Positions 11,502-39,426 of a stretch of 64,000 nt of DNA are shown here, one piece after another. This stretch comes from Desulfobacterales bacterium (lineage in GTDB: Bacteria > Desulfobacterota > Desulfobacteria > Desulfobacterales > SURF-7). Below the pieces are notes generated by a model. The model searched no databases. It worked only from the letters and a program-made list of their open reading frames with translations, and was not told where the DNA came from. A program made the position numbers and the translations under genes. The stretch is from NCBI GenBank assembly GCA_018693105.1, contig JABHLN010000005.1, positions 2,735 to 66,734 of the forward strand, written 5' to 3'. The stretch's first letter is position 1. Each line of letters opens with the position of its first letter.

Positions 11502-12133
11502 TTATTATATATTCCAAAAAGCTGATTATAAATATTTAAATACAATGCAAATTTGTTGATCAGGAGTGAAGATATACATCTATTATGTCAAACCGCTTAT
11601 CAACCATCATAAAGCAATAATCTCACTATAGCAGTATTTACAACATCATCAAATAACATTAACCACAAATTAATAAAGTTTTTTCATTTTCAAGTCAAGA
11701 AAGCTTTACCCGCAGGATATAATAATAAGTGTTTGAACTTACAAATATCATTATTTTCAACCGCTCCATGGACACATATATTTTGTATCATGAAAACTCA
11801 CACATAAGAGTTCGTAAAGAAAAAACAGAGCTTGTCTCTGGAAAGCCGATTTACAAACAGGATAGATATTATTGCTAATTAATTTTTTTGCAGAAAATAG
11901 TATTTTTTCTTAACGATCTCTAATGTATTCAAATAGTTTCAAGTTAATAAATATAAGTACCCATTCCGCTGCACCGGGATAATAGTAAGGAGATATTATT
12001 GAACAAAACGGTTTTAATCTATAACAAGGTAATTTTAAGTTGAAATATAGCGACTTTAAATTATATATAATAAAAGTTGTAACAAAAAATCAGATCAATT
12101 TAATGGACCTTGCATATAAGGTTTTTTTACCTG

Positions 12134-13456
12134 ATGGATAAAAAAAGAAATAAATATATATTTAACAGGCTTGTTTTTCATTTTCGACCCCAAAATGTCC
12201 CTGAAAGCAACTTAATATTTAACCACACATGGGGATTAGGCGGCATTTCTGCCACCCTTGTCATACTTCTTTTTATTACCGGTATTTTATTGCAGTTCGT
12301 ATATGAACCTTTACCTGGAAACGCTTATGATTCAATTGTTTATTTGCAAAATGATGTGTTGTTCGGGAGGTTGATTCGAAATATTCATCATTGGAGTGCT
12401 AATATTCTAGTTTTGGCTGCTTTTCTTCATATGATGAGGGTTTATTTTACGGGCGGGTTTCACCACCCGCGTCGGTTTAACTGGATAATTGGCCTTTTTC
12501 TGTTTTTTTTGGTTCTTATTTCAAATTTCACCGGGTATCTTCTCCCATGGGATCAGCTTGGATTCTGGGCTGTTACAATATGTACCGGCATGGTTGAATA
12601 CATTCCGCTTTTTGGATCATGGCTTTTAAAAATTATAACCGGTGGTTCCGAGACCGGTTCACCATCTATTCTGTTTTTTTTCACTATTCATACCTCCGTT
12701 ATCCCCGTATTTTTGATAACTATAATGATGTTTCATTTCTGGCATGTAAGAAAGGCCGGCGGCATTGTTTCTCCTGTATCTCTCAGGAAAGAATCATGGG
12801 AGGAAAATAGTGGAGGGAAAGACAATAATACCAAAACAGTACAGCATCTCATAGTTCGTGAGCTGGTGGTAGCACTCGTATTGATTGCCTTTATCATGGT
12901 TTTTTCCATATTATTTGACGTACCATTACAGGAAAAGGCAAATCCCGGATTAAGTCCTAATCCGGCTAAGGCTCCTTGGTATTTTATGGGGATCCAGGAA
13001 ATTTTCTTACATTTTCATCCATTATTTACCGTATTTATTATTCCGGTAATTTTTACATCCGTACTCATTTTTCTGCCTTATATTAAATATGACTCAGATG
13101 TGTCAGGGGCCTGGTTTTTTTCCCGAAAAGGCCGTAAAATGGGGGTGGTAGCTTGTGTAACAGCGATCTTTGTGACACCTTTGGCCGTGATATATGATGA
13201 GTTTTTTGTTGATTTAAATTCATTAATTCCTCAGCTTCCGGAAATAATCAATACAGGTCTTTTCCCTGTTTTTATTATAATAGCTGCAATAACCATTTTT
13301 TATATATGGATTAAAAATCGGTATTCCGCTTCAAATAACGAAACTATTCAGGCTGTTTTCATATTACTTTCAGTATCATTTGTTATTCTTACCATAACCG
13401 GGGTCTGGTTCAGGGGTTCCGGAATGGCTTTAGCATGGCCTTTTACGGTTCTGTGA
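12134..13456 (+). CDS. Cytochrome b (fused b6-like N-domain and subunit-IV-like C-domain)
   Basis: His pairs in TM helices (RNIHHWSAN, FLHMMRVYF, FFTIHTSV, MMFHFWHVRK) and a C-terminal APWYFMG motif. I preferred the ATG at 12134 to the TTG at 12110. Confidence 0.8.
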   Translation: MDKKRNKYIFNRLVFHFRPQNVPESNLIFNHTWGLGGISATLVILLFITGILLQFVYEPLPGNAYDSIVYLQNDVLFGRLIRNIHHWSANILVLAAFLHMMRVYFTGGFHHPRRFNWIIGLFLFFLVLISNFTGYLLPWDQLGFWAVTICTGMVEYIPLFGSWLLKIITGGSETGSPSILFFFTIHTSVIPVFLITIMMFHFWHVRKAGGIVSPVSLRKESWEENSGGKDNNTKTVQHLIVRELVVALVLIAFIMVFSILFDVPLQEKANPGLSPNPAKAPWYFMGIQEIFLHFHPLFTVFIIPVIFTSVLIFLPYIKYDSDVSGAWFFSRKGRKMGVVACVTAIFVTPLAVIYDEFFVDLNSLIPQLPEIINTGLFPVFIIIAAITIFYIWIKNRYSASNNETIQAVFILLSVSFVILTITGVWFRGSGMALAWPFTVL

Positions 13457-13520
13457 GCTTATTTTTAACCGGTTTTCTGAGTTTATATTTAACCGGTTTC
13501 TAAGTTTATATTTAAATTGA
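13455..13520. repeat. Tandem direct repeat, ~2.7 copies of a 23-24-nt unit
   Basis: GAGCTTATTTTTAACCGGTTTTCT / GAGTTTATATTTAACCGGTTTCTA / AGTTTATATTTAAATTGA, beginning on the cytochrome b stop codon. Confidence 0.6.
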
Positions 13521-13701
13521 TACCTTTTACAAAACCTGTCTTTCTCTTAACGTTTTACAGGGTTGCACTTTTTTGCCTTATAGAATTAGCCTATGGTTGT
13601 CATGGGGCGGAAACCCTAATCCAATGTAGGAGGCCAAATCATCGAAAACCTCAATATATTCATTGGTTAATCATAAAACGTGGAAATGGTTTTTATATAC
13701 A

Positions 13702-13920
13702 TTATAGTGGTTCCCATAAATATGTTTCTTTTTATCCCGGTCCCCCATCAGAAAATTTTTTCAATCACCTGGCCGAACTAGCCCCTTAACGGTCCCTAAC
13801 TAAAATGTGGTAGTGTCGGGTAAAAATCGTGAAACCATGTTTTATGAAATGTTCTTTTTGTTAAACAGGAAGGCGTGGCCTTTTGATTTTTTATGATTTG
13901 ATTAAAGAGAAATACTATAA
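13702..13920. repeat. Family-D palindromic MITE-like repeat (shorter copy)
   Basis: TTATAGTGGTTCCCATAAATAT...CCCGGTCCCCCATCAGAAAATTTTTTCAATCACCTGGCCGAACTAGCCCCTTAACGGTCCCTAACTAAAAT aligns by eye with 54813..54916. The right end ...GAGAAATACTATAA is inverted relative to the left end. Confidence 0.5.
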
Positions 13921-14069
13921 TCAGCTGATACCGTACAAAAAAACAGGGGGGTGTCTAAGAAGTCGTTGCCTGTCGCGGATATTTAACTTGTTTTTCCTAC
14001 AAAAATTTTATATGAGTCATAATACAAAAGAAAAAAGAAACTATTATATAAAATTTTTAAGGAAGGGCA

Positions 14070-14345
14070 ATGAAATTCTGGCGAGTTCCACTGGATTCAG
14101 AAGAAGTACAGGTCACCTATGGTAGAGTGTATATCCTTGACGATCGATGTAAGGGGTGCGGGTATTGCATAGAGTTTTGTCCTCAGAGTGTTCTTCAGTT
14201 TTCCTCAAAATTCAATAAAAAGGGTTATCATCTGCCTGCTGTAGATAAGCCGGGCGAATGTCTGAGCTGTCACTACTGCGAGATAATATGCCCGGAATTT
14301 GCAATTTATTCTGTAGAATCAAACCCGGAAAAATCCAAAACGTAA
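14070..14345 (+). CDS. korD: 2-oxoacid:ferredoxin oxidoreductase delta subunit (2x[4Fe-4S] ferredoxin)
   Basis: Two CxxCxxCxxxCP motifs (CKGCGYCIEFCP, CLSCHYCEIICP). 91 aa, first gene of the kor cluster. Confidence 0.8.
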   Translation: MKFWRVPLDSEEVQVTYGRVYILDDRCKGCGYCIEFCPQSVLQFSSKFNKKGYHLPAVDKPGECLSCHYCEIICPEFAIYSVESNPEKSKT

Positions 14346-14388
14346 TGATTATAAGAAACTCAGATAATAACTAAGGATTATAAAATAG

Positions 14389-15534
14389 ATGAAAAAAGCA
14401 ATCCTTACAGGTGAACATTTTTTTACAGGAGATGTTGCATGCGCCGAAGGCGCATTGGCCGCCGGATGCCGTTTTTTTGGCGGATATCCCATTACTCCGG
14501 CAACAGAGATAGCTGAACGAATGGCATCCAGGCTTCCACATGTTGGGGGCTCCTATATTCAGATGGAGGATGAGATTGCAGCTATTGCATCTGTACTTGG
14601 CGCTTCATGGGCAGGTGTAAAAAGCATGACCGCAACCTCAGGCCCCGGATTCAGCCTCATGATGGAAAATCTTGGATTAGGCATCTGTACCGAAACGCCT
14701 TGTGTAATTGTAAATGTACAACGTGGCGGACCATCAACCGGACTTCCAACGCAGGGAGCCCAGGGTGATATGATGCAGTCAAGGTGGGGGTCTCATGGAG
14801 ATTATGAAATAATAGTTCTTGCACCATACTCTCCACAGGAAATTTTCTATCAGACAATAACTGCATTTAATTTGAGCGAAACCTATCGTATTCCGGTATT
14901 GATAATGACCGATGAGATAGTAGGGCATATGAGTGAAAAAGTTATTATACCGGATTCAAGAAAGGTAAAAACCATATCCCGTACTGCACCAAAAGGCCGA
15001 AAAGACAGGTTCAGGTTGTTTGAGCCGGGGCCAAATGGTGTTGCTCCGATGCCTGCAGCGGGCCAGGGGTATAATGTACATGTAACCGGTCTTACCCATG
15101 ATGAAAAAGGCTATCCTGTCATGACTGTTGATACACAGGTTGAAATGATGGACAGGCTCACCGGAAAAATCAGGAATAATCTTGATGATATAATAATGAC
15201 TGAAAGCTATATGATGGATGATGCTGAAATTGTACTGGTTTCTTATGGTGTTTCCGCCCGTACATGCCTTGCTGCAGTTGACCAGGCAAGAAAAAGCGGA
15301 ATCAAGGCCGGGATGTTCCGTCTTATAACTGTATGGCCGTTTCCTGAAGAAGAGATCAAGAAGATTGCTGAGAGAGTAAAAGGTTTTATAACTGTTGAAA
15401 TGAATCTTGGCCAGATTCACAGGGAAGTACAGCGGTGTGTAGGAGGTAAAGTTCCGGCTGTTCTTGTGGGGCATCATGGAGGAACAATCATTCCCCCTGA
15501 GGATGTTTTGAAAAAGATGAAGGAGACTTTTTAA
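14389..15534 (+). CDS. korA: 2-oxoacid (probably 2-oxoglutarate):ferredoxin oxidoreductase alpha subunit
   Basis: Typical N-terminus GDVACAEGALAAGCRFFGGYPITPATEI. 381 aa. Confidence 0.85.
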   Translation: MKKAILTGEHFFTGDVACAEGALAAGCRFFGGYPITPATEIAERMASRLPHVGGSYIQMEDEIAAIASVLGASWAGVKSMTATSGPGFSLMMENLGLGICTETPCVIVNVQRGGPSTGLPTQGAQGDMMQSRWGSHGDYEIIVLAPYSPQEIFYQTITAFNLSETYRIPVLIMTDEIVGHMSEKVIIPDSRKVKTISRTAPKGRKDRFRLFEPGPNGVAPMPAAGQGYNVHVTGLTHDEKGYPVMTVDTQVEMMDRLTGKIRNNLDDIIMTESYMMDDAEIVLVSYGVSARTCLAAVDQARKSGIKAGMFRLITVWPFPEEEIKKIAERVKGFITVEMNLGQIHREVQRCVGGKVPAVLVGHHGGTIIPPEDVLKKMKETF

Positions 15535-15537
15535 ATT

Positions 15538-16380
15538 ATGGGAGGAAGCCCGGATATTTCAAAAAAACAGCTTGATCATCCTTTAGATGATCTTATTCGT
15601 ACTGATCGTCTTCCGCATATATGGTGTGCAGGGTGCGGTATCGGAACCGTTTTTTCATCATGTCTGACAGCAATTAAAGCCAGTGAATTAGAACTTAATA
15701 ATATTTCAATGGTTTCAGGCATTGGGTGTTCCGGTCGTGCCGCCGGTTATGTTAAACTTGACTCCTTTCACACAACTCATGGAAGAGCTATTCCGTTTGC
15801 AACAGGTTTGAAACTGGGCAACCCGGATCTTAACGTAATTGTTTTTTCCGGTGACGGAGATCTTTTTGCCATAGGCGGGAATCATATGATTCATGCCGCA
15901 AGACGCAATATGGATATTACAGTAATCTGTGTAAATAATCTGAATTACGGTATGACAGGCGGTCAGGTTGCAGCCACTACACCCCATATGGCAAAATCAA
16001 CCACAACCCCTTCAGGAAATCCTGAAGATCCTTTTAATCTACCCCTGCTTGCTTATGCTTCGGGCGCCACCTATGTTGCCCGATGGACAATGCTCCATAC
16101 AAGAGAGCTGACAAGTTCAATACAGGAGGCGATATTAAAAAAGGGTTTTTCTTTTATTGAAGTACTTTCTCCATGCCCTGTAAATTATGGTAGACGAAAT
16201 AAAGAGAAAGCCCTTGATACCTTGAAACTTTACCAGGAAAAAACAATTATTCGAAATGGCGCTATTCCTGCCGGCCTTGATATTGACTTTTCCAAAGAGG
16301 TGGTTTTAGGAAAATTTGTTGATGTTGAACGAGACACTTATATCGAAAGATATGAAAAGATATGCAGGCAGGAATCCTAA
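15538..16380 (+). CDS. korB: 2-oxoacid:ferredoxin oxidoreductase beta subunit (TPP-binding)
   Basis: WCAGCGIGT Cys motif and the GDGD TPP/Mg motif (FSGDGDLFAIGGNH). Confidence 0.85.
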   Translation: MGGSPDISKKQLDHPLDDLIRTDRLPHIWCAGCGIGTVFSSCLTAIKASELELNNISMVSGIGCSGRAAGYVKLDSFHTTHGRAIPFATGLKLGNPDLNVIVFSGDGDLFAIGGNHMIHAARRNMDITVICVNNLNYGMTGGQVAATTPHMAKSTTTPSGNPEDPFNLPLLAYASGATYVARWTMLHTRELTSSIQEAILKKGFSFIEVLSPCPVNYGRRNKEKALDTLKLYQEKTIIRNGAIPAGLDIDFSKEVVLGKFVDVERDTYIERYEKICRQES

Positions 16381-16410
16381 TAACAATTCAGATAAAAAAT
16401 CGGGTTAAGT

Positions 16411-17007
16411 ATGACCAATATACAGGATAATAAAAAGGAAGTAGTAATTACCGGATTCGGCGGGCAGGGTATTGTTCTTGCCGGAACTATTCTGGGAAAG
16501 GCCGCGGCTTTGGGGGATCACAGAGAAAGTACCCTGGTTCAGTCTTACGGTCCCGAGTCTCGTGGAGGAGCATGCAGTGCCCAGGTGGTTATTTCCGACA
16601 CAATAATTTTTTATCCCTATATCAAGACGCCGGACGTGCTTGTATGCATGTCACAGGGTGGTTACGACAAATATATCGGCGATCTTCCTGATGACGGAAT
16701 TCTTATTATAGATCATGACCTCGTAAAGGCTAAACGCAAGGTTAAAGAATTTTATTCAATTTCTGCAACACGTATAGCTGAAGAGCTTGGTCGGAAAATG
16801 ATGGCAAATATTATAATGATTGGTTTTGTTACAGCTGTTACAAAAATTATATCTATGGATGCCGCACAGGATACTGTCGTTAAATCGGTTCCTAAAGGCA
16901 CAGAAGAGATGAACTTAAAAGCCTTTAATAGAGGAAGTGATTACGGTCTGTCAGTCCTTAAAGGGCGTGAGAAAAAGGCAGAAGGCCGAACAGGAGCGGT
17001 TTCATGA
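16411..17007 (+). CDS. korC: 2-oxoacid:ferredoxin oxidoreductase gamma subunit
   Basis: ITGFGGQGIVLAGTILG motif. 198 aa. Its stop overlaps the hdrL-like start (ATGA at 17004..17007). Confidence 0.85.
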   Translation: MTNIQDNKKEVVITGFGGQGIVLAGTILGKAAALGDHRESTLVQSYGPESRGGACSAQVVISDTIIFYPYIKTPDVLVCMSQGGYDKYIGDLPDDGILIIDHDLVKAKRKVKEFYSISATRIAEELGRKMMANIIMIGFVTAVTKIISMDAAQDTVVKSVPKGTEEMNLKAFNRGSDYGLSVLKGREKKAEGRTGAVS

Positions 17008-20000
17008 AGGGCTCAAAGGACAGACTTCACCGGGTTATCGTTATTGGCGCTACACCGGCGGGAATATCAGCGGCCAATAAACTTGGCGAACTGGATATCC
17101 CGGTTACACTGGTAGACACTGACTATGATCTGGATAAAAAATTATCCTGTGAGGAGTGGCGTTTAAAATCAGGGGTTCCCTTAAACTTTGCCCATCGTTC
17201 AGGGCTTATAAGGCTTTTTAGAAACCCCGGGGTGAGATGTATTCTGCCTATGGAAATCACCTCGCTCAAACATACTCCTCAAGGATTTCGCATGCGCTTT
17301 AACAGGCAGCAGACATTTATTGATCCTGATAAATGTACACTATGTGGCAGATGTTATGATATTTGTCCCGCTTTTGTACCCGAGGATGGTAAGGCTGTTA
17401 AGCTAAACAGCAGGCAGAGTCTGCCGGGTCGGGCAGTTATTGAAAAGGGCCGTAAGCCGCTCTGTCAGGAAAACTGTCCACTTGGTGTTAATGCCCAGGG
17501 ATATATAACTCTTACAAAGGCCGGCAGGTATGCGGAAGCTTTAAGCCTTGTGAGGGAAAACAATATTCTTCCGGGTATTTGCGGCAGGATATGTACCCAT
17601 CCTTGTGAAGACGAATGTAGAAGGGGTGAACTGGATGATGCTATTGCCATTCGTGATATCAAGAGGTTTCTGGCAGACCATGAACTCTCGGATAAATCTT
17701 TGCGTATGGAAGAAGTTGAAGCTGAAAAACAGGTAAAACAGGTAAAAAATGAAAAGATTGCCGTTATAGGTTCAGGTCCATCAGGGCTTGCAGCAGCGGC
17801 AGATCTTGCTCGTCTTGGGTATCAGGTGACAATTTTTGAAAAAGAAGCTAAAGCCGGGGGATTGCTCAGATATGGAATAGGACCCCATCGTCTACCAAGA
17901 GAGATTCTCGATAAAGAACTAGAATATATTGAAAACATTGGTATTAGGATTGAAACATCCACGCCGGTTGATTTAAAAAAAGGATCGGAAAGTCTTGATA
18001 AGGTTTTAAAAGAATATGATGCTGTAATCTTTGCTGTTGGAACATGGTCTGATCGCTGCCTTGGAATTCCGGGAGAAGATCTTCAAGGGGTTGAAGGTGG
18101 TCTTTCTTTTTTAAATCGCCTTTACAGGGAAGATATAACCGAATTGAAAAGTAAGGTTGCTGTAATTGGAGATGGAAATTCAGCATTTGATCTTGGTAGA
18201 ACATTGTCCCGAATAGGGGCGGATGTAACTATACTTTCATGGTTCCCGGAAGATCTTGTTCCTGCCGATTCTGAAGAAGTACTTGCTGCCGGCAAGGAAG
18301 GCATTAAAATAAAATGTTCTCTGCAGGTTGTTGAGTTTAAAGGGAAAAACGGAAAGGTGGAAAGTATCGTCTGCAGACAGACTGCCCCGGGAGAGCCTGA
18401 TGAAAACGGGGTTCCCTGGCCGGTTATTGTGCCGGCCGGTGAGACGCTTGAGCTTGAGTTTGACAGAGTATTTGTAGCAACAGGCCAGCAGGGCTCTTTT
18501 ACCGGTATTGACAGTAAAATCAAGATGAATGATCATGGCTATATAAAGGTGGATGATAATAGCCGAACAAATATAAAGAAAGTTTATGCCACGGGAGATA
18601 CCGTTTCCGGTCCTTCTTCTGTTGTCAGTGCAATGTCTTCGGGGCGAACTGCTGCACAAAAGGTGCATCAGGACATCTCCGGGATGGCTATGGACGAGAC
18701 GGCAGGTGTAATTACAATACGGCCGGAAGAAAATGAATTCAGAAAAATACCTGATAACGTTCCGTCCCAGATGCGACCGGCAATGCCGGAGATAAGGGCT
18801 GATATTCGCAGAAATAATTTTTCAGAGGTTGCTGTCGGGCTGAGTGAATCCCAGGTGATTTCAGAGGCAGGGCGTTGCCTTCAGTGCGGTTTATGTTCTG
18901 AATGTCTTGAATGCGTTGTCGTATGCGGGGCAACAAAGGCGGTAAATCATGCTGAATCCTGCGAAGAACTTATTGAACATGCAGGAGTTGTTATTATAGC
19001 CGATCCTTCAATTGCTCCTACGGTCAAGGGTGAGGATGTGATTCGTGCCTACGGGCCCAGGTCGGCAAAAACAGATGTATATGCCATGTACGTTCGCGGC
19101 TTTGCTTCAGCGGCACAAGCTATGATGCTTCTTGGAAAGACATCTCAAAGGCCAAAAGGGCATGGAGTATCATTTTCTCCCCCTGATCCTGGATTATCAC
19201 CGGAAATTCGTCTTGGGATTTTTGTCTGTAAGTGTAATGAATCCCTTGGGTGGCTTGATGAAATGAACAGGTACGTAGAAGAACTGACATCTAATGAGGA
19301 TGTGGTTCATTCGGAAATACTAAACTCTGCATGTGTACCAGAAGATACAGCAGGTATAATAAGAACGATTCGGGAAAAAGGAATTACACGTGTTGTTCTT
19401 GCATCCTGTGTATGCTGCCCGCTGAACTTTGTCTGTAACTCATGTACCGATCAGAGGAGCCGTCTTAAAGAAAATCTTTTTAAAGGTACCGGAATAAGTC
19501 GCTCAATGATAGAAACATGCAATATTCGTGGAGAGGCTCTTCGCCTTGTTGAAAAAGATGCTTCTCTTGCTTTAAGCCGATTTGAGGGTATGCTGGAACG
19601 TTCGGTGAACAGGGGAAGAAGGCTAAAACCGCTTCCAGCCCCTGCAAGGGACTATAATTTTAATACCGCTGTTATAGGTGAGTCGGAAGCGGCTATAAAC
19701 AGTGCTTTGACTCTTGCAGAATCAGGTGTTGAGGTTTTCTTATTCGGAATATCTCAGGCGCCACCTGTTGATGTGAAAAATCATCTCAATGTACATTTTT
19801 TTGAAAATTCCACTGTAAAAGCGATTACGGGAACAGTGGGAAATTTTCAGGTTTTTATTGAATCCAACGGTTTCAAACAGAGTATAAATGTTGGTGCCCT
19901 TATAATTGGAGAGAAGACAAGGAAGGATATTCATTATATTCATCAGGATGGCCTGCCTGGCAGAAGTGTACGGTCGGTAATGCAGAAAGCAGGAGTTACC

Positions 20001-20390
20001 GGAATACCGTTTTTTTATCCCGGGGCTACAGCAATTTCCGGACTTTATCTGGCAGATCCTCCCGGCATAAATGTTTCAAACAGGCAAAAAGGGGCTGCGG
20101 CCGCTGCCCATGCCATAGCTATCATGCCACGTGGTCCGCGACAGAGCAGGGGTTTTACTGTTGTAATTGATGAAAATAGATGCAGGGGATGTGGTCGTTG
20201 TGACATGGTATGTCCATATCAGGCAGTATCCCTTCAGAAGAACCAGGTAGAAGGCTGGTATGCGACTGTTGATGAGGCTCTTTGCAAAGGATGCGGTAAT
20301 TGTATATCAGTATGTCCTTCGAGTGCTGCCGATAGCCCATACCGCAACCATTCCTCACTGGAAAATATGCTTGAGGAAATACTGGAATAA
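17004..20390 (+). CDS. hdrL: Giant HdrL-like NAD(P)H-binding flavo-iron-sulfur protein (GltD-like module embedded in HdrA-like domains)
   Basis: 1128 aa. Rossmann motifs VIGATPAG, VIGSGPSGLAAA, VIGDGNSA. GltD-like CQENCPLGV...GRICTHPCEDECRRG. Several CxxCxxCxxxCP clusters. HdrA-like GIFVCKCNESLGW and the terminal pair CRGCGRCDMVCP/CKGCGNCISVCP. Confidence 0.8.
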   Translation: MKGSKDRLHRVIVIGATPAGISAANKLGELDIPVTLVDTDYDLDKKLSCEEWRLKSGVPLNFAHRSGLIRLFRNPGVRCILPMEITSLKHTPQGFRMRFNRQQTFIDPDKCTLCGRCYDICPAFVPEDGKAVKLNSRQSLPGRAVIEKGRKPLCQENCPLGVNAQGYITLTKAGRYAEALSLVRENNILPGICGRICTHPCEDECRRGELDDAIAIRDIKRFLADHELSDKSLRMEEVEAEKQVKQVKNEKIAVIGSGPSGLAAAADLARLGYQVTIFEKEAKAGGLLRYGIGPHRLPREILDKELEYIENIGIRIETSTPVDLKKGSESLDKVLKEYDAVIFAVGTWSDRCLGIPGEDLQGVEGGLSFLNRLYREDITELKSKVAVIGDGNSAFDLGRTLSRIGADVTILSWFPEDLVPADSEEVLAAGKEGIKIKCSLQVVEFKGKNGKVESIVCRQTAPGEPDENGVPWPVIVPAGETLELEFDRVFVATGQQGSFTGIDSKIKMNDHGYIKVDDNSRTNIKKVYATGDTVSGPSSVVSAMSSGRTAAQKVHQDISGMAMDETAGVITIRPEENEFRKIPDNVPSQMRPAMPEIRADIRRNNFSEVAVGLSESQVISEAGRCLQCGLCSECLECVVVCGATKAVNHAESCEELIEHAGVVIIADPSIAPTVKGEDVIRAYGPRSAKTDVYAMYVRGFASAAQAMMLLGKTSQRPKGHGVSFSPPDPGLSPEIRLGIFVCKCNESLGWLDEMNRYVEELTSNEDVVHSEILNSACVPEDTAGIIRTIREKGITRVVLASCVCCPLNFVCNSCTDQRSRLKENLFKGTGISRSMIETCNIRGEALRLVEKDASLALSRFEGMLERSVNRGRRLKPLPAPARDYNFNTAVIGESEAAINSALTLAESGVEVFLFGISQAPPVDVKNHLNVHFFENSTVKAITGTVGNFQVFIESNGFKQSINVGALIIGEKTRKDIHYIHQDGLPGRSVRSVMQKAGVTGIPFFYPGATAISGLYLADPPGINVSNRQKGAAAAAHAIAIMPRGPRQSRGFTVVIDENRCRGCGRCDMVCPYQAVSLQKNQVEGWYATVDEALCKGCGNCISVCPSSAADSPYRNHSSLENMLEEILE

Positions 20391-20419
20391 AAAAGATACA
20401 AAAAAAGAATCTGGAAAAT

Positions 20420-21997
20420 ATGGATAAATATAAAATCATACTGTTTTTATGCAACTGGGGACCTCATGCTGCATTTCAGGCGTTGCAGGACAATAGAGAT
20501 GCAATTCCTTCTGAAATTCATATGGTTAGAATTCCATGCACCGGAAGGATCAGTAAATCACTTCTTCTGAAGGCATTTGAAAAAGGTGCAGATGGTGTTA
20601 TTCTTATGGGGTGTAGGCATGGATCCTGTCATTATGGAACCGGGACCGAGACTGCTGAAAAAAACACAGAGGACACAAGAAAAATTATTGAAACACTGGG
20701 GATTGGGAAAGAGCGCCTTAAATTTGTTACATTTCATCCGGATGAATCTGATTTGCTCCTTGAATTTCTGAATAGTTTCACCAAAGAGATTGCTTCTTAC
20801 AGTCATACTCATGTCACCAGGAGCAAGGACCCTGAACCATGGGTCGAAAAATCAATTGAAGAAATTGTTTCAAAGCATGATGTGTTTGCCTGCCAGGATT
20901 GTGGAAAATGCACATCCGCCTGCCCTCTTGCACTCACCGGGAAACCTTTTTCACCAAGGGCTGTGGCGGCTGCTGTGATTTCAGGTGAAGTAAATGATGA
21001 ATCAGTAAAAAACGATATATGGTCATGCCTTACATGTGGAATATGTTATGACAGGTGTCCTTCTGCCGTTAATTTTCCAGAGTTTATAAGGGATGTTCGC
21101 TGCTATTACAAAAACAGGGAAATTACCGGACAGGAAACTCATGGCGGTTTTTTTCAATCTCTCATGCGTACAATGACTTCATCGGACCTGAAACCAACCC
21201 CCTGGAGCTGGCTTCCTGAAGAAATCAAAACAGACAGTAACAGCAAGGTTCTTTTTTTTGGGGGCTGTGCACCTTATTTCGACATTTTTTTTAGGGAATT
21301 TCTTGGAGTAAAAACCTGCAATATTCTGGCTGACAGTCTGCGCCTCTTAAACTTTTTTGATATTCAACCTGCAATTTTGGAAGAAGAAAGATGTTGCGGA
21401 CATGATCTGTTGTGGTCAGGCGACAGGGAAAACTTTACAAGACTTGGAAAAATTAATGCTGACCGGATTCACCAAATGGGAATCGAGGAAGTAATTACAT
21501 CCTGCCCCGAGTGTTACAGAACTCTGGCGTACGATTACCCGGAACATGGTATAGAATTGAATTTTAAGGTCACCCATTTATATGAGCTGCTTGAAAATGA
21601 AATTAATAAAGGAGCGGTTCAGTTCAAGAAGATTAATAAGAAACTTACAATTCAGGATTCATGCCGTTTGAACCGTTTTGAAAATATCTATGATCAATCA
21701 AGAAAGCTTATTAACCGTATTAATCCTGAGTCTTTTACAGAAATGCAGAACAACGGAAAGACTTCAATCTGTTGTGGAAACAGTGCATGGATCGGTTGTG
21801 ATTCCTTTAGCAAAGCTCTTCAGGTAAAACGGCTCAATCAGGCTCATGATACAGGGAGTGATGTTCTTGTTACATCATGCCCTAAATGCCAGATTCATCT
21901 TAAATGTGCCATGGAAGATCCTTTTAGAGAAAATGAACTTAAAATTGAGACAATGGATTTAACCAGTATAATAGCTAAAACACTTCGCTGGGAGTAA
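20420..21997 (+). CDS. MvhD-like / HdrC-like / HdrB-like (CCG domain) fusion protein
   Basis: N-terminal MvhD fold (LFLCNWGPHAA...IPCTGRIS...GCRHGSCHY). Two ferredoxin motifs (CQDCGKCTSACP, CLTCGICYDRCP). CCG motifs (ERCCGHD, SICCGNS). Confidence 0.8.
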   Translation: MDKYKIILFLCNWGPHAAFQALQDNRDAIPSEIHMVRIPCTGRISKSLLLKAFEKGADGVILMGCRHGSCHYGTGTETAEKNTEDTRKIIETLGIGKERLKFVTFHPDESDLLLEFLNSFTKEIASYSHTHVTRSKDPEPWVEKSIEEIVSKHDVFACQDCGKCTSACPLALTGKPFSPRAVAAAVISGEVNDESVKNDIWSCLTCGICYDRCPSAVNFPEFIRDVRCYYKNREITGQETHGGFFQSLMRTMTSSDLKPTPWSWLPEEIKTDSNSKVLFFGGCAPYFDIFFREFLGVKTCNILADSLRLLNFFDIQPAILEEERCCGHDLLWSGDRENFTRLGKINADRIHQMGIEEVITSCPECYRTLAYDYPEHGIELNFKVTHLYELLENEINKGAVQFKKINKKLTIQDSCRLNRFENIYDQSRKLINRINPESFTEMQNNGKTSICCGNSAWIGCDSFSKALQVKRLNQAHDTGSDVLVTSCPKCQIHLKCAMEDPFRENELKIETMDLTSIIAKTLRWE

Positions 21998-22012
21998 CGA
22001 TTGGGGAAAAAG

Positions 22013-24442
22013 ATGCAAGTAAAAAGTATGACTTCAGCAGACTCGGAAAAACAGGCCAGGATAGGTGTATATGTCTGTCATTGCGGTCTTAATATTAGCA
22101 AGACTGTTGATTGCGCCAAGGTTGCCGAGGTTTCAAAGGAACTTGAATATGTTGTAGAGGCAAAAGATATTGCCTATGCCTGTTCGGAACCAGGTCAGAA
22201 GGAAATCGTAGATGGTATCATTGATAATGACCTTGACCGTATAGTGGTTGCCTCCTGTTCACCCAGGCTTCATGAACCTACATTCCGTCAGATGCTCCAG
22301 AAGGCCGATTTGAACCCCTATATGCTGGAAATGGCCAACCTTCGGGAGCAATGCAGCTGGGTACATATGAGTGAACCGGAAGCTGCGACCCGAAAGGCAT
22401 TAGACCTTGTTAAAATGTCTGTATCACGAGCAGCTCTTCTATGGCCGCTTTTTGAAGAGACACTACCCCTTACAAAACGGACGATGGTTATCGGAGGAGG
22501 AGTGGCTGGTATCCAGGCGGCTCTTGACCTTGCAGATAACGGATATGAAGTGGTTATGGTTGAAAAAAACCCGTCTATCGGGGGTACCATGGCCAAGCTT
22601 GATAAGACCTTTCCAACTATGGACTGCTCAATCTGAATTCTCGGTCCGAAGATGACGGATGTCGGTCGACATCCAAACATAAAAATGCTCACCATGAGTG
22701 AAGTAGTTGGCATTAAAGGTTATGTCGGTAATTTCAAGGTAGAAATCTTAAAACGGGCTCGATATGTAGATGAAAGCGAATGCACAGCATGCGGTGATTG
22801 TGTAAAAGTATGCCCCGTTGTCAGATCTGACGAATTTAATGAGGGCCTGTCTTCACGCAAGGCTATCTATTCGCCTTTCCCACAGGCGGTTCCATCCTCT
22901 TATTTAATTAATGTTAATGAATGTCTGGGGCATAACCCTTCGGTTTGTTCAAAATGTCTGGATGCATGTGACAAGAAATGTATCGATTTTCAGATGTCAG
23001 ATGAAAAGATTGTTGAAGAAATAGGTACTATAATAGTTGCCACCGGCCTGGAACCGTATGATCCCAAGGAACTTGATGAATACGGATATACAAGATATGA
23101 AAATGTTCTGACAAGTCTTGAATTTGAACGTCTTGTTAATGCCGGTGGTCCGTCACAGGGAGAACCGATCCGGCCTACAGATAGAAAAACCCCTAAATCT
23201 GTTGGTTTTATTCAATGCGTAGGATCCCGGTCAGCCCGAAGGGGAAGTGAATACTGTTCAAATACCTGTTGTATGAATACTGTAAAAAGCTCACTGGTAC
23301 TCAAGGAACATTACCCTGATATTGATATAAAGGTTTTTTATGTTGATATTCGTGCTTTTGGAAAAGGCTTTGAAGACCTTTATATGCGCAGCAAGCGATA
23401 TGGAGTTCAATATTTAAGAGGTTTGCCGGGTACTGTTGAAGAACTTGATGATTCAAGCTTAAGAGTTGCAGTTGAAAATACTGCAACTGGTAAGGTTGAA
23501 TATCATGATCTGGATATGCTTGTGCTTGCCCTTGGTATGAAACCGGCAAAAAGTACACAACGGCTGCAGGAAATGCTTGGTTTGCAGCTTAATCCTGACG
23601 GTTTTTATCTTGAAGCCCATCCTAAACTTCAGCCTGTTGATGCAGCTACAAGGGGAATATTTTTTGCAGGTTGTGCCGAAGGACCAAAAGACATCAAGGA
23701 AAGTGTTACCCAGGCTTCTGCGGCATCTGTCCGTGCTATCAGGCTTATGCATAAAGGAGAAATATCAGCTGAGCCGATTACTTCTGAAATTATCGAAGAG
23801 AACTGTAAGTTCTGCGGGAAGTGTGCAGAGGTTTGTCCCTATAATGCCATTTCGTTAAATAAAGAGAAAAAGATTCCTGCTTCTGTTAATACTGCTGCAT
23901 GTTCAGGTTGTGGAACATGCGCGGCCGAATGTAAGTTTGATGCTATTATCATGAATCATTTTACAGATGATCAGATCAATAGTCAGACAGATGCAATGCT
24001 GGTGGAAGAACCTGAATCAAAAATCGTTGTTTTTGCATGTAACTGGTGTTCATATGCCGGTGCAGATTATGCGGGTGTTTCCCGGTTTCAATATCCTCCC
24101 AATGCAAGGTTGATAAGAACCATGTGTTCCGGTCGTGTTGATGAAAAGTTTATTATGCGGGCCTTTGAAAAGGGTGCCCCGGTTGTCCTTGTAAGTGGTT
24201 GCCATATTGGAGATTGTCATTACATTGATGCAAATAAGTGGACTGAAAAAAGGATAATAAAACTTCAGGGAAAACTGGAAAAAATAGGGATAAGGCCTGA
24301 ACGGCTCCAGCTGGAATGGATCAGTGCTGCAGAAGGTATGAGGTTTGCCGATGTCATGCGGCAAATGGAAGATCTTCGCAAAAGTGTTTCCAGCGAAGAG
24401 ATTGCGGAAACTATCGAAATTCTTGAAAACAGGAAGAAATAG
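22013..24442 (+). CDS. hdrA: Heterodisulfide reductase subunit A with a C-terminal MvhD domain; selenocysteine read-through of TGA at 22634..22636
   Basis: ORFs 22001..22636 and 22652..24442 are in the same frame (offset 651 nt). Joined they read ...KTFPTMDCSI-U-ILGPKMTDVGRHPN, the conserved HdrA motif. Also VIGGGVAGIQAALDLA, four ferredoxin motifs, and C-terminal FACNWCSYAGAD...GCHIGDCHY. ATG at 22013 is preceded by GGGGA. Confidence 0.85.
22657..22674 (+). promoter_or_regulatory. Candidate bacterial SECIS hairpin
   Basis: GGATGTC-GGTC-GACATCC forms a 7-bp perfect stem with a GGUC tetraloop. It starts 21 nt after the in-frame TGA. A GGUC-containing apical loop is the hallmark of the E. coli fdhF SECIS. 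Confidence 0.55.
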
Positions 24443-36936: not shown

Positions 36937-39198
36937 ATGTCAGATAATTTTACTAAATCAGATTCATTAATTTCTGTGGATGAACGCAAAAAGAGAAAGC
37001 GTGAAGGCATTCTTGCTGTTTCCATTATTGCAATAATGGTGATTTTGACTTATGCGGAAACTCAGGTAATAACTTTTGGAACTGATATTCCGATTTCCAA
37101 TACAGTTTTAATGTTTATTCTTATAAACATTAATCTGTTACTTTTAATACTTTTAATGTTTCTTGTTTTTAGAAACATTGTAAAACTTATTTTTGCAAGG
37201 AGGAGAAAGATCCTTGGTGCGAAACTTCGCACAAAACTGGTCCTTGCCTTTATAACACTTTCTCTTTTACCAACAATAGTTCTTTTCTTCTTTTCAATTC
37301 ACTTTATTACATCGAGTATTGAGTTCTGGTTTAATGTTCCGGTGGAACAGTCTCTTGACAAGTCTTTGCTTGTGGGTAGGGAGCTTTACAAGCATATTGA
37401 GGAAAATAATAAATTTTTTATTGAAAGAGTAGCATATCAAATCAAGACAAAGAAACGTCTGGCTCCAAACAAAATAAAAAACCTTTCCCATTATATTCTT
37501 ATCAGTCAAAGGGAATTTCACCTTCACGGTGTTGAAGTATATGATACAAACTATAACAGAATTACTTTTGCCATTGATCCTGTACTTGAGAACAAATCGT
37601 TTGAGATTGTTTCAGCCGATGACATTCAAAAAGACATGGGAGATGACAAAGTCATAACAATAACTCAAGGTATCTCTTCCGGTGAACTAATAAGGACAAT
37701 AGGAACAGTTCCCTTCGGAGTAAAACAGGCAGATGCAGATGCGTTTGTTGTTATATCAATCCTTATTTCTCCCGAACTTTCCAAAAATCTGTCATCAATT
37801 ACAAGGGGTGTTGAGGAATACCAGCAGATAAAACTGCTGAAAAAAACAATTCAAATCGCAAATTCCATAACGCCCCTTTCAATAGTCGCACTTCTCGTTA
37901 TATTTTGTGCTGTATGGTATGGGCTTTATCTGGCGAAAACAATTACAATCCCAATTATGAAGCTTGCAGAGGGAACAAGGAGAGTTGCAGAGGGTGATCT
38001 TAGCTTTAATATGGACCTTGTTGCGGATGACGAAGTAGGAATTCTTGTGGATTCCTTTAATATAATGACTTCTGATCTCCGAAAAGGCAGGGAACAGCTG
38101 GAACTTTCAAATAAAATGCTTTCAGAGCAGAGAGATGAGATTGAGGAAAGGCGCCAGTACATGGAGATAATCCTGACTAATGTTTCTGCAGGTGTTATTT
38201 CTTTTGATGCTTCAGGAAAAGTCACAATGATAAACAAATCGGCTGAAAAAATGCTCAATATTGATGCCGTGAAAATACTTGGTAAAGATTATGAAGAGCT
38301 CCTGGCCTATGATAATCTGAAACTCGCAAGAGAGGTTATGGATTATTTTACTTCATCAGAAAATGATTCCCTGTCTCGTCATGTCAGAATAACAATTGGT
38401 GGAAAACCCCTAAGCTTTTCAATGAATATAAATGCTCTTAAGGATGATACAGGTCATTATATGGGGCTCGTTGTTGTGTTTGATGATATGACGGAGCTGG
38501 AAAGAGCGGAGCGCAAGGCTGCATGGCGGGAAGTAGCCAGAAGAATAGCCCATGAAGTAAAAAACCCTTTAACCCCAATAACTCTTTCCGCTCAGCGGTT
38601 GAAACGAAAATACTCCAAGCAGATTAATAATCCTGTCTTTGAAGAATGCACGAGCACAATAATTGATCATGTTGATCTTATTCGGAATCTTGTAAATGAG
38701 TTTTCACGTTTTGCCAGGTTTCCAAGCGCAAACCCAAAGCCTCGTGACCTTCTGCCCATTGTTGAGGAGACAGTAGCCCTATACAGGGAGGGACACCCTG
38801 ATGTTATTTTTGAAATCAGGGTTCTGGACAAGATACCTGAACTCAGCCTTGATCGTCAGCAGATAAAGCAGGCTTTAATAAATCTTGTTGATAATGCAAT
38901 AGCATCTTTGAATTTTAATAATGACGACTGTATATCATTTACCTTATCTTATGAACCTTCTTTAGAAAAGGCCCGGCTTATAGTAGCTGATACAGGATCT
39001 GGTATTTCAGATAAAGAAAAATCTCTATTGTTTGAACCTTATTTTTCAACAAAGAAAACAGGTATGGGCCTTGGACTTACTATTGTAAGCACAATTATTA
39101 ATGACCATAAAGGAACAATTTTCGTTGAGGATAATTCTCCCCGTGGAGTGAAATTTATTATTGAGTTTCCGGTTGAAGAAATGTTGATAGCCGATTAG
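36937..39198 (+). CDS. ntrY: NtrY-like sensor histidine kinase (TM-HAMP-PAS-HisKA-HATPase)
   Basis: Four N-terminal TM helices, a HAMP region, H-box AHEVKNPLTPI, N-box LVDNAIAS, G-boxes DTGSGI and GMGLGL. Confidence 0.85.
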   Translation: MSDNFTKSDSLISVDERKKRKREGILAVSIIAIMVILTYAETQVITFGTDIPISNTVLMFILININLLLLILLMFLVFRNIVKLIFARRRKILGAKLRTKLVLAFITLSLLPTIVLFFFSIHFITSSIEFWFNVPVEQSLDKSLLVGRELYKHIEENNKFFIERVAYQIKTKKRLAPNKIKNLSHYILISQREFHLHGVEVYDTNYNRITFAIDPVLENKSFEIVSADDIQKDMGDDKVITITQGISSGELIRTIGTVPFGVKQADADAFVVISILISPELSKNLSSITRGVEEYQQIKLLKKTIQIANSITPLSIVALLVIFCAVWYGLYLAKTITIPIMKLAEGTRRVAEGDLSFNMDLVADDEVGILVDSFNIMTSDLRKGREQLELSNKMLSEQRDEIEERRQYMEIILTNVSAGVISFDASGKVTMINKSAEKMLNIDAVKILGKDYEELLAYDNLKLAREVMDYFTSSENDSLSRHVRITIGGKPLSFSMNINALKDDTGHYMGLVVVFDDMTELERAERKAAWREVARRIAHEVKNPLTPITLSAQRLKRKYSKQINNPVFEECTSTIIDHVDLIRNLVNEFSRFARFPSANPKPRDLLPIVEETVALYREGHPDVIFEIRVLDKIPELSLDRQQIKQALINLVDNAIASLNFNNDDCISFTLSYEPSLEKARLIVADTGSGISDKEKSLLFEPYFSTKKTGMGLGLTIVSTIINDHKGTIFVEDNSPRGVKFIIEFPVEEMLIAD

Positions 39199-39232
39199 AC
39201 ATTCTATCAGGCATTTCATATGTTCTGATATT

Positions 39233-39385
39233 TGATGGAGTCGTAAAAAGTCTCCATCTACTGTGTTATAGTGTTTGGCCAGACGTTCGACATACTACAT
39301 GTATGCCTTCACGTCTGGCCAAATACTATGCCTTGTATATGAAGATTTTACTTAGCCATCGGTTATACTTTTTACGAGTTCATCA
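39233..39385. repeat. Family-A MITE-like repeat (best-preserved copy)
   Basis: 19-nt TIRs: TGATGGAGTCGTAAAAAGT versus the reverse complement of ACTTTTTACGAGTTCATCA (2 mismatches). Perfect 12-bp internal stem TTGGCCAGACGT/ACGTCTGGCCAA. Confidence 0.8.
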
Positions 39386-39426
39386 TATTTAATACCGGTT
39401 TATTTATTTTGAGGAGTATAAAAAAT

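Follow-up and report, generated by a model that had tools for sequence, protein, structure and literature searches.

The window analysed here is a 64,000-nt stretch of contig JABHLN010000005.1 from a Desulfobacterales bacterium (assembly GCA_018693105.1), and the system in question is a run of seven plus-strand genes that fills positions 14070–24442. In order, these genes encode the four subunits of a 2-oxoacid:ferredoxin oxidoreductase (KorD, KorA, KorB and KorC; together KOR) and three proteins of heterodisulfide reductase (Hdr) type, namely an HdrL-like protein, an MvhD-HdrCB fusion and an HdrA-MvhD fusion. The listing of open reading frames (ORFs) and their translations reproduce exactly the genes, order, strand and gaps given by an earlier sequence-only reading, which had proposed a functional linkage of KOR with Hdr. 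The genes are as follows.

14070..14345, + strand: korD, 91 aa; delta subunit, ferredoxin-like, with 2x[4Fe-4S] (CKGCGYCIEFCP, CLSCHYCEIICP)
14389..15534, + strand: korA, 381 aa; alpha subunit, POR_N + PFOR_II, with a YPITP motif
15538..16380, + strand: korB, 280 aa; beta subunit, binding thiamine pyrophosphate (TPP; GDGD...NN), with cysteines for [4Fe-4S]
16411..17007, + strand: korC, 198 aa; gamma subunit, POR domain III
17004..20390, + strand: hdrL-like gene, 1128 aa; Fer4_20 + Pyr_redox_2 (GltD/NfnB-like) between HdrA-like segments
20420..21997, + strand: mvhD-hdrC-hdrB fusion, 525 aa; MvhD [2Fe-2S], 2x[4Fe-4S] (CQDCGKCTSACP, CLTCGICYDRCP) and two complete CCG domains
22013..24442, + strand: hdrA-mvhD fusion ('HdrA2'-type), 809 aa, with one in-frame TGA at 22634–22636

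Successive genes are spaced by 43, 3, 30, −4, 29 and 15 nt. At the fourth junction the korC stop and the hdrL start overlap in ATGA (17004–17007), and an AGGAG Shine-Dalgarno sequence lies within korC, 7 nt 5′ of the hdrL ATG; the overlap, read earlier as a sign of coupled translation, is real and is accompanied by this ribosome-binding sequence. All plus-strand terminator-like matches of the operon fall within coding sequence and none lies in an intergenic gap, in agreement with the earlier statement that no such hairpin separates the genes. A sigma-70-like match (TTGAGA-16-TATAAT, 11/12) was found at 21945–21972, inside the 3′ end of mvhD-hdrCB, ~40 nt short of the first codon of hdrA. The match may mark an internal promoter or be due to chance; promoter-like matches totalled 32, against 32.2 expected from shuffles.

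The KOR genes encode the set typical of a four-subunit 2-oxoacid:ferredoxin oxidoreductase, with alpha and beta subunits, a separate gamma subunit and a delta subunit carrying two CxxCxxCxxxCP motifs. KorA scores 242 bits against POR_N and 87 bits against PFOR_II in Pfam, with GGYPITPATE readable in the translation, while KorB scores 118 bits against TPP_enzyme_C and shows SGDGD...VNNLNYG, WCAGCG, GCSGR and SPCP. Pfam and NCBIfam back the domain calls of the sequence-only reading across the operon; that reading did not mention the MvhD fusion at the C-terminus of HdrA. Among the NCBIfam models, only the generic 2-oxoacid alpha-subunit model was exceeded by this enzyme (KorA against NF006412, 2-oxoacid:acceptor oxidoreductase alpha, 583 bits; cutoff 411). 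The 2-oxoglutarate models remained under their cutoffs (OorA/KorA alpha, 395 vs 579; beta, ~244–245 vs 364; gamma, 212 vs 235; OGOR_delta, 60 vs 125), as did OorC and OorD, OGOR_delta and OorD being the best matches of KorD. Models for POR, VOR, IOR and oxalate oxidoreductase scored far lower (PorA_Arch, 111 bits; IOR, 71 bits). The nearest solved relative of KorA is 1yd7, the alpha subunit of an uncharacterised 2-keto acid:ferredoxin oxidoreductase from P. furiosus, followed by 8ys5 (2-oxoglutarate synthase) and 6n2n, with the four-subunit PFOR 9bt4 far behind (58 bits). KorA, KorB and KorC also show distant similarity to the PadG, PadI and PadE models, respectively. By these scores the enzyme belongs to the KOR/OOR-like branch, and 2-oxoglutarate is our best guess for its substrate.

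The HdrL-like protein has a composite structure, which we mapped by sequence alignment (BLASTP against the HdrA of the window, and PDB searches). The first segment (residues 10–140) looks like the beginning of the FAD domain of HdrA; its dinucleotide motif is degenerate (GATPAG), and one [4Fe-4S] site comes after it. Residues ~150–640 align with NfnB/GltD-like proteins along the full length of NfnB and contain two [4Fe-4S] sites, an FAD motif (GSGPSG) and an NAD(P)H site (GDGNSA), and an extra cysteine cluster (C625–C641) follows this module. Residues 734–952 resemble the N-terminal Fe-S domain of HdrA together with a degenerate Rossmann motif (GESEAA), and residues 1002–1108 match the last part of the HdrA FAD domain and its C-terminal 2x[4Fe-4S] ferredoxin domain. 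The highest structure scores were obtained with StnC (8oh5_C, 280 bits), NfnB (4ylf_B, 251 bits) and NfnI (5jca_L, 247 bits), with HdrA (5odc_A) at 82 bits. The cysteine motifs are all invariant in an alignment of 14 orthologues. More than 1900 relatives of the protein were found, of which the best 120 are full-length (1108–1158 aa) and 59–65% identical to it, bar one 99%-identical copy. The HdrL of the KOR cluster has no selenocysteine and forms its own KOR-linked orthologue group. Where every solved NfnB-type protein has YRR after the NAD(P)H Rossmann strand, the HdrL family has SWF at the following site.

Window 18160–18200 (HdrL residues ~386–399 and ~411–413): SWF-for-YRR site, defined by comparison with solved NfnB-type proteins

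We take the YRR of NfnB to be a contact of the NADPH 2′-phosphate. Since SWF replaces these residues, the HdrL module probably prefers NADH, or at least does not have a typical NADPH site. The NAD(P)H-binding module of the sequence-only reading is thus present, with its GDGNSA site, while the use of NADPH implied by that wording is doubtful. The cluster also differs from an NfnAB transhydrogenase, as it has the NfnB-like module with SWF for YRR and no NfnA-like gene. The protein corresponds to HdrL as conceived in the Desulfobacterium autotrophicum genome paper, the source of the concept (Strittmatter et al. 2009, PMC2702500): it is a fusion of HdrA with a glutamate-synthase-small-subunit-like part, it has an NAD(P)H site, and the next gene starts with an MvhD domain.

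The remaining two proteins provide the other parts of an Hdr system. The MvhD-HdrCB fusion matches FlpD(MvhD), Fer4 and two CCG domains in Pfam (CCG, 82.8 bits over two stretches; Fer4_8, 36.8 bits), and its best NCBIfam match, TfrB, stays below the cutoff (145 vs 385 bits). Both CCG domains read C...CCG...CxxC, as in disulfide reductases of the HdrB/HdrC type, and by its motifs this double CCG is the signature of HdrB noncubane clusters that reduce disulfides. HdrA has the full-length architecture of the bifurcating type, comprising the N-terminal domain, an FAD domain with the motif GGGVAG and ferredoxin domains of both the inserted and the C-terminal kind, and it ends in an FlpD(MvhD) domain. 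It aligns with the HdrA of M. thermolithotrophicus (5odc_A) with 762 bits over residues 14–663, and its tail aligns with MvhD (5odc_D) with 143 bits over residues 666–786. It also passes the NF040770 'HdrA2' model (1200.8 bits; cutoff 1100). This model would label the protein 'CoB-CoM heterodisulfide reductase HdrA2', an annotation-transfer hazard; to our knowledge, bacteria of this organism group are not known to make CoM or CoB.

The in-frame TGA of hdrA lies in the context TMDCSI*ILGPK (asterisk, TGA), and the corresponding residue aligns with Cys197 of 5odc_A, in its DCSIC motif. The codon is followed by a hairpin that resembles a selenocysteine insertion sequence (SECIS).

22634..22675, + strand: UGA(Sec) + SECIS-like hairpin; predicted fold GGAUGUC-GGUC-GACAUCC at 22657–22674, 20 nt past the UGA

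The TGA is present in the same context in 59/59 orthologous loci that cover the site (among loci L003–L079 of the set described below), and nearly all of them carry the hairpin GGAUG(U/C)C-GGUC-G(A/G)CAUCC 20 nt after it. The sixth stem pair alternates between U-A and C-G through a Val-to-Ala change and a synonymous Arg change (CGA to CGG), a switch that reads as a genuine compensatory signal beyond protein conservation. Judged from these alignments, selenocysteine at this position of HdrA is a fixed feature of the module.

To assess the conservation of the linkage, one genome per species was scanned, giving 463 loci with an HdrL relative. The best 80 of 463 were taken with 8-kb flanks and compared with the seven window proteins by tblastn; HdrL orthologues in these 80 species-level genomes share 57–65% identity. 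A gene was counted as present only if its strand and order agreed with the window, and only where the contig reaches far enough for it to be assessed. Upstream of hdrL, korC was found as the immediate neighbour in 76/76 assessable genomes, korB in 64/67, korA in 56/58 and korD in 53/55; downstream, mvhD-hdrCB was found in 65/66 and hdrA in 50/50. The labels of the genomes that carry the cluster include Desulfobacteraceae, Desulfococcaceae, Desulfatiglandales, Desulfobulbus, Syntrophales, Ca. Desulfatibia, Eth-SRB1 and the phenanthrene degrader TRIP AH-1. The same seven-gene order occurs in the Syntrophobacteraceae, in Syntrophobacter sp. (L069) and Desulforhabdus sp. TSK (L072), and cultured Desulfonema limicola has the whole cluster, at 1.522–1.541 Mb of CP061799.1, with a DUF4160/DUF2442 pair between hdrL and hdrCB. 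The synteny across relatives called for by the sequence-only reading is therefore conserved, and at the level of comparative genomics its KOR-Hdr functional linkage is supported by this synteny, by the korC-hdrL junction and by intact cofactor motifs.

Median junction lengths are 57 nt for korD-korA, 3 nt for korA-korB, 35 nt for korB-korC, −1 nt for korC-hdrL, 29 nt for hdrL-hdrCB and 61 nt for hdrCB-hdrA. The korC-hdrL junction is 50 nt or shorter in 75/77 loci and overlapping in 46/77, and is the tightest and least separable junction of the operon. When the flanking ORFs of ~45 loci were clustered, no family occurred in more than 7 loci; DsrC, ferredoxin, enzymes of the tricarboxylic acid (TCA) cycle and regulators were looked for. 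Because the seven genes are kept together while their flanks are not conserved, they constitute a self-contained module that moves between genomic contexts and are not a by-product of general collinearity.

A few loci deviate from this layout. Two loci of one Desulfococcaceae-like lineage, L064 and L074, carry mobile genes of restriction-modification and HepT type 5′ of korC, and L064 has in addition a ~2-kb insert between hdrL and hdrCB that L066 probably shares. Despite these inserts and the displaced korDAB, korC and hdrL overlap by 4 nt in L064, L066 and L074. The exception in L064 is no loss of hdr genes, and the same would apply to L066 and L074. Matches in L058 are fragmented, probably by frameshifts. 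The inserts (L064, 744–7140 and 11509–13155; L074, 1410–7368; L085, 11393–11913) are confined to two places, 5′ of korC and the hdrL-hdrCB junction, and none of them splits korC from hdrL. Among their genes, which are of mobile or defence type, are a type III restriction-modification system, HepT-like toxins, DUF3782 and the DUF4160/DUF2442 pair.

Taken by their motifs, all elements of Hdr-type electron bifurcation are present in the operon: a hydride donor site in HdrL, two MvhD connectors, a complete HdrA and an HdrC/HdrB-like arm. The cofactor motifs required for an electron path from KOR to Hdr are all intact. In the gene order, the free low-potential ferredoxin that usually serves such systems appears to be replaced by a ferredoxin-dependent KOR, whose KorD is itself a putative 2x[4Fe-4S] ferredoxin. 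We propose that the seven genes encode one physical KOR-HdrL-HdrCB-HdrA complex that works independently of ferredoxin around an Hdr-type bifurcating core, a proposal to which we assign about even chances. The gene layout, cofactor motifs, conserved synteny, coupled korC-hdrL junction and ever-present selenocysteine can be read from the sequences; that the subunits form a complex, and with which electron route, substrates and direction, is a prediction built on them and set out below.

In the proposed complex, NAD(P)H, more likely NADH, would be oxidised at the NfnB-like FAD of HdrL, and Fe-S clusters together with the [2Fe-2S] domains of MvhD type would hand the electrons on to the FAD of HdrA, the selenoprotein, where the pair would be split. 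The high-potential electron would pass through the HdrC-like clusters and the two CCG noncubane clusters to a disulfide, for which DsrC or another thiol carrier is a candidate. The low-potential electron would pass through the ferredoxin-like domains of HdrA and HdrL and through KorD to KorB and its TPP, where an acyl-CoA could be reductively carboxylated (succinyl-CoA + CO2 to 2-oxoglutarate, or acetyl-CoA to pyruvate). HdrL would probably act as a flavin-poor pseudo-HdrA, the partner of the true HdrA and the dock for KOR, and its NfnB-like FAD may be an alternative or second bifurcation site. The system should also be able to run in reverse, in which case oxidation of the 2-oxoacid would confurcate electrons from the 2-oxoacid and the thiol onto NAD(P)+. 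NAD(P)H has a potential of ~−320 mV and the 2-oxoacid/acyl-CoA + CO2 couple one of ~−500 mV, while the disulfide lies well above NAD(P)H; because these midpoint potentials fit, exergonic disulfide reduction could pay for reductive carboxylation. In methanogens, Hdr-Fmd supercomplexes feed bifurcated electrons straight to an enzyme that reduces CO2, and one of these supercomplexes, PDB 7bkb, is among the structure matches of both HdrL and HdrA. A more specific form of the proposal, which we put forward tentatively, is a ferredoxin-free supercomplex that would be the bacterial counterpart of methanogen Hdr-Fmd, with a heterodimer of the true HdrA and the flavin-depleted pseudo-HdrA HdrL, which contains the inserted NfnB module, splitting the electrons of NADH and the low-potential electron wired into KOR.

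Several points weigh against the proposed complex. The complex is a prediction at the protein level, and co-regulated enzymes that exchange electrons through free ferredoxin would also fit the synteny and coupled translation. The strong sigma-70-like site before hdrA could mean that part of the cluster is separately transcribed. The AlphaFold2 model of HdrL (14-sequence alignment; mean pLDDT 55, pTM 0.36) is too poor to check the proposed pseudo-HdrA fold. No thiol/disulfide partner is encoded in the cluster or beside it in the flanks of the ~45 loci. The substrate is not established, as the 2-oxoglutarate-specific models stay under their cutoffs. Finally, Sedano-Nunez et al. 2018 (PMC5947623) did not detect the 'HdrAL/POR' proteins of Syntrophobacter fumaroxidans in the proteome in any propionate or fumarate condition that they tested.

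The alternative that survives best concerns the substrate and fits either architecture: KOR may act on pyruvate or another 2-oxoacid, not on 2-oxoglutarate, which the sequence-only reading had named and for which every specific model falls short. The module would then serve to make or oxidise pyruvate, or would belong to some other 2-oxoacid pathway. That only the generic 2-oxoacid alpha model is passed, that the closest solved relative is the uncharacterised '2-keto acid' enzyme of P. furiosus, and that the S. fumaroxidans paper labels its enzyme POR (PMC5947623) are consistent with such a substrate. However, the much lower scores of the POR, VOR, IOR and oxalate oxidoreductase models (PorA_Arch, 111 bits; 9bt4 PFOR, 58 bits) and the standing of two 2-oxoglutarate enzymes, 8ys5 and 6n2n, as the next solved relatives argue for 2-oxoglutarate, and we consider a different substrate somewhat unlikely.

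A second alternative is a co-regulated operon without a supercomplex, in which KOR and a separate HdrL-HdrA-HdrCB complex share free ferredoxin, as has been proposed for FlxABCD-HdrABC. KorD is of ordinary size (91 aa) and has no extra docking domain, no kor-hdr gene fusion was seen in the 80 loci (0 cases), and the Hdr-Flx precedent in the literature uses free ferredoxin, all of which would suit two separate enzymes. Co-regulation alone would hardly explain why the korC-hdrL junction is tighter than the junctions within kor and is kept when korDAB is displaced, and the cluster and its surroundings lack a conserved ferredoxin gene. On balance we regard this arrangement as unlikely.

A third possibility dispenses with bifurcation altogether. 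The NfnB-like module of HdrL would pass KOR electrons to NAD(P)+, as in the NAD-dependent phenylglyoxylate dehydrogenase PadEFGHI, and the operon would encode a 2-oxoacid:NAD(P)+ oxidoreductase whose Hdr proteins have a separate or regulatory disulfide role. Pad carries an additional GltD-like NAD-binding subunit; in the operon, the tight korC-hdrL coupling places an NAD(P)H module beside KOR, and KorA, KorB and KorC have the distant Pad similarities given above. Against this, a complete bifurcation-type HdrA (50/50), with all its domains, its FAD motif and a universally retained selenocysteine, and the intact double-CCG HdrB-like domains (65/66) are conserved together with KOR. Because so much conserved machinery exceeds the need of a simple downhill transfer, this explanation is weakened, and we consider it improbable.

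Two further candidates were rejected. Chance co-location is incompatible with the same order and strand in 50–76 independent species-level genomes, depending on the gene, with unconserved flanks. An Hdr linked to hydrogenase or formate dehydrogenase was discarded, as such genes are neither among the annotated window ORFs nor conserved in the flanks; no hydrogenase, formate dehydrogenase, dsr or TCA genes were found among the annotated large ORFs of the window (up to ~51.5 kb), so the earlier remark that hydrogenase and formate dehydrogenase genes are lacking nearby holds over that range.

Comparison with known systems places the proposed KOR-Hdr complex among several partial precedents. The closest is the 'HdrAL/POR (Sfum_0012-0018)' of S. 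fumaroxidans, mentioned in one sentence by Sedano-Nunez et al. 2018 (PMC5947623). It likewise comprises seven genes and an Hdr-like system with HdrA and HdrL that is associated with a 2-oxoacid (pyruvate):ferredoxin oxidoreductase, whereas the published account labels it POR and gives neither a conservation analysis nor a mechanism. From the gene count, the names and the relatives, Sfum_0012-0018 is very probably the orthologous cluster.

A second precedent comes from tubeworm symbionts and Thioflavicoccus mobilis, in which Rubin-Blum et al. 2019 (PMC6315080) described a cluster of tfrB, tfrA, hdrC, hdrB, korD, korA, korB, korC, hdrA, flxD, flxC, flxB and flxA and suggested that electrons from NADH are bifurcated straight to a thiol acceptor and the 2-oxoglutarate enzyme. 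The kor-hdr-flx cluster was later found to be co-expressed, and a Kor-Hdr-Flx complex was proposed in tubeworm symbionts (Mitchell et al. 2024, PMC11636981). As in the window, korDABC is followed directly by an hdrA-type gene, and the cluster contains an NAD(P)H-oxidising module and hdrCB. The two differ in that the NADH module is a separate FlxABCD in the symbionts and an NfnB-like domain within the pseudo-HdrA (HdrL) here, that MvhD is fused here to both HdrCB and HdrA, that the HdrA of the window is a selenoprotein, and that the hosts are Gammaproteobacteria there and Desulfobacterota here. The symbiont cluster also has tfrAB (thiol:fumarate reductase), ATP citrate lyase (aclAB) and other genes of the reductive TCA cycle; none of flxABCD, tfrAB or the reductive TCA genes turned up, either in the annotated ORFs of the window or in a conserved flanking position. 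The adjacency of korC to an hdrA-like gene together with an NAD(P)H module is thus present in two differently built clusters of two phyla, and the tubeworm cluster is an analogue.

The methanogen complexes HdrABC-MvhAGD and Hdr-Fdh-Fmd (5odc, 7bkb) share with the operon an HdrA that is similar over its full length, MvhD, and HdrC-like and double-CCG HdrB-like modules. They are also alike in concept, since bifurcated low-potential electrons are wired into a CO2-fixing enzyme, an arrangement that is proposed here. They differ in that an NAD(P)H module serves here as donor in place of a hydrogenase or formate dehydrogenase, that a TPP-dependent 2-oxoacid oxidoreductase takes the low-potential position of formylmethanofuran dehydrogenase, that HdrC and HdrB are fused with MvhD, and that the hosts are bacteria without CoM-S-S-CoB. 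The HdrA2B2C2 of Methanosarcina acetivorans, which uses F420H2 or ferredoxin and CoM-S-S-CoB, shares the HdrA-MvhD fusion, consistent with the NF040770 score of the window HdrA. In NfnAB and StnABC (4ylf, 5jca, 8oh5), the resemblance is confined to the NfnB-like part of HdrL, which aligns over the full length of NfnB with both Fe-S sites and the FAD and NAD(P)H sites; the module differs in lacking an NfnA partner, in being inserted into an HdrA-like scaffold and in having SWF for YRR. The HdrL of D. autotrophicum HRM2 is likewise a large protein that joins HdrA to a glutamate-synthase-like part and has an NADH-binding site, and a gene encoding MvhD comes next to it, while the HRM2 loci lie beside dsrABC or fdh genes, two of the proteins are selenoproteins and a kor linkage is unmentioned (PMC2702500).

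The sequence-only reading had held that a KOR-Hdr unit is uncharacterised. No biochemical characterisation of any such unit was found in the literature searched, while the linkage itself had already been reported in 2018, 2019 and 2024; the idea is not new and belongs to the already noticed, uncharacterised kind. The present analysis adds the quantitative synteny, the recognition of korC-hdrL as the most conserved junction, the domain map of HdrL, the SWF-for-YRR replacement, the universal selenocysteine and SECIS-like hairpin, and a list of cultured hosts, namely Desulfonema limicola, Desulforhabdus sp. TSK and, by inference, S. fumaroxidans. Through the synteny, what had been a single line on a genome becomes a target that biochemistry can address with a list of subunits. 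For bioenergetics this target is well defined and probably important, and it will be no surprise to specialists.

Reductive carboxylation by 2-oxoacid:ferredoxin oxidoreductases needs electrons at ~−500 mV, and how anaerobes supply them near the thermodynamic limit is an open bioenergetic question. The conserved union of KOR with an NAD(P)H-linked Hdr module suggests a general solution, direct wiring without free ferredoxin, and Desulfobacterota and gammaproteobacterial symbionts have similar kor-hdr arrangements that differ in their NAD(P)H modules. If the proposed complex is correct, 2-oxoacids could be synthesised from acyl-CoA and CO2 independently of the cellular ferredoxin pool, at the expense of disulfide (DsrC?) reduction. 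Flavin-based bifurcation would then be shown for the first time to drive a 2-oxoacid synthase, possibly with two bifurcating flavins in series.

The operon is preceded by the following region, which holds a terminator-like hairpin at 13868–13884 that sets the operon apart from an upstream cytochrome b gene.

13457..14069, + strand: upstream intergenic region, 613 nt; presumed site of the operon promoter

No promoter was identified in this region, and an Rfam scan of the whole window returned 0 matches, hence no known leader or riboswitch. The cytochrome b/b6-type gene (12110–13456, + strand, 448 aa) lies 613 nt upstream of the operon on the same strand; it is also found upstream in contigs of metagenome-assembled genomes (MAGs) of the same lineage and is not a conserved neighbour in other genomes. 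The other annotated ORFs of the window are of housekeeping type and include MutL, GatA, ArgRS, SerRS, CoaE and a sigma-54 two-component pair. This pair, a PAS/HAMP histidine kinase and a sigma-54-dependent response regulator at 36937–40782, lies ~12 kb downstream of the operon, and no link between the two was found, with no test aimed at one. The window matches the uncultured MAGs GCA_018648885.1 (L081) and GCA_018676775.1 (L082). KorA is identical in both, and their hdrL is called as 829 or 810 aa (gene start 4616) compared with 1128 aa in the window, which is probably a difference of assembly or gene calling.

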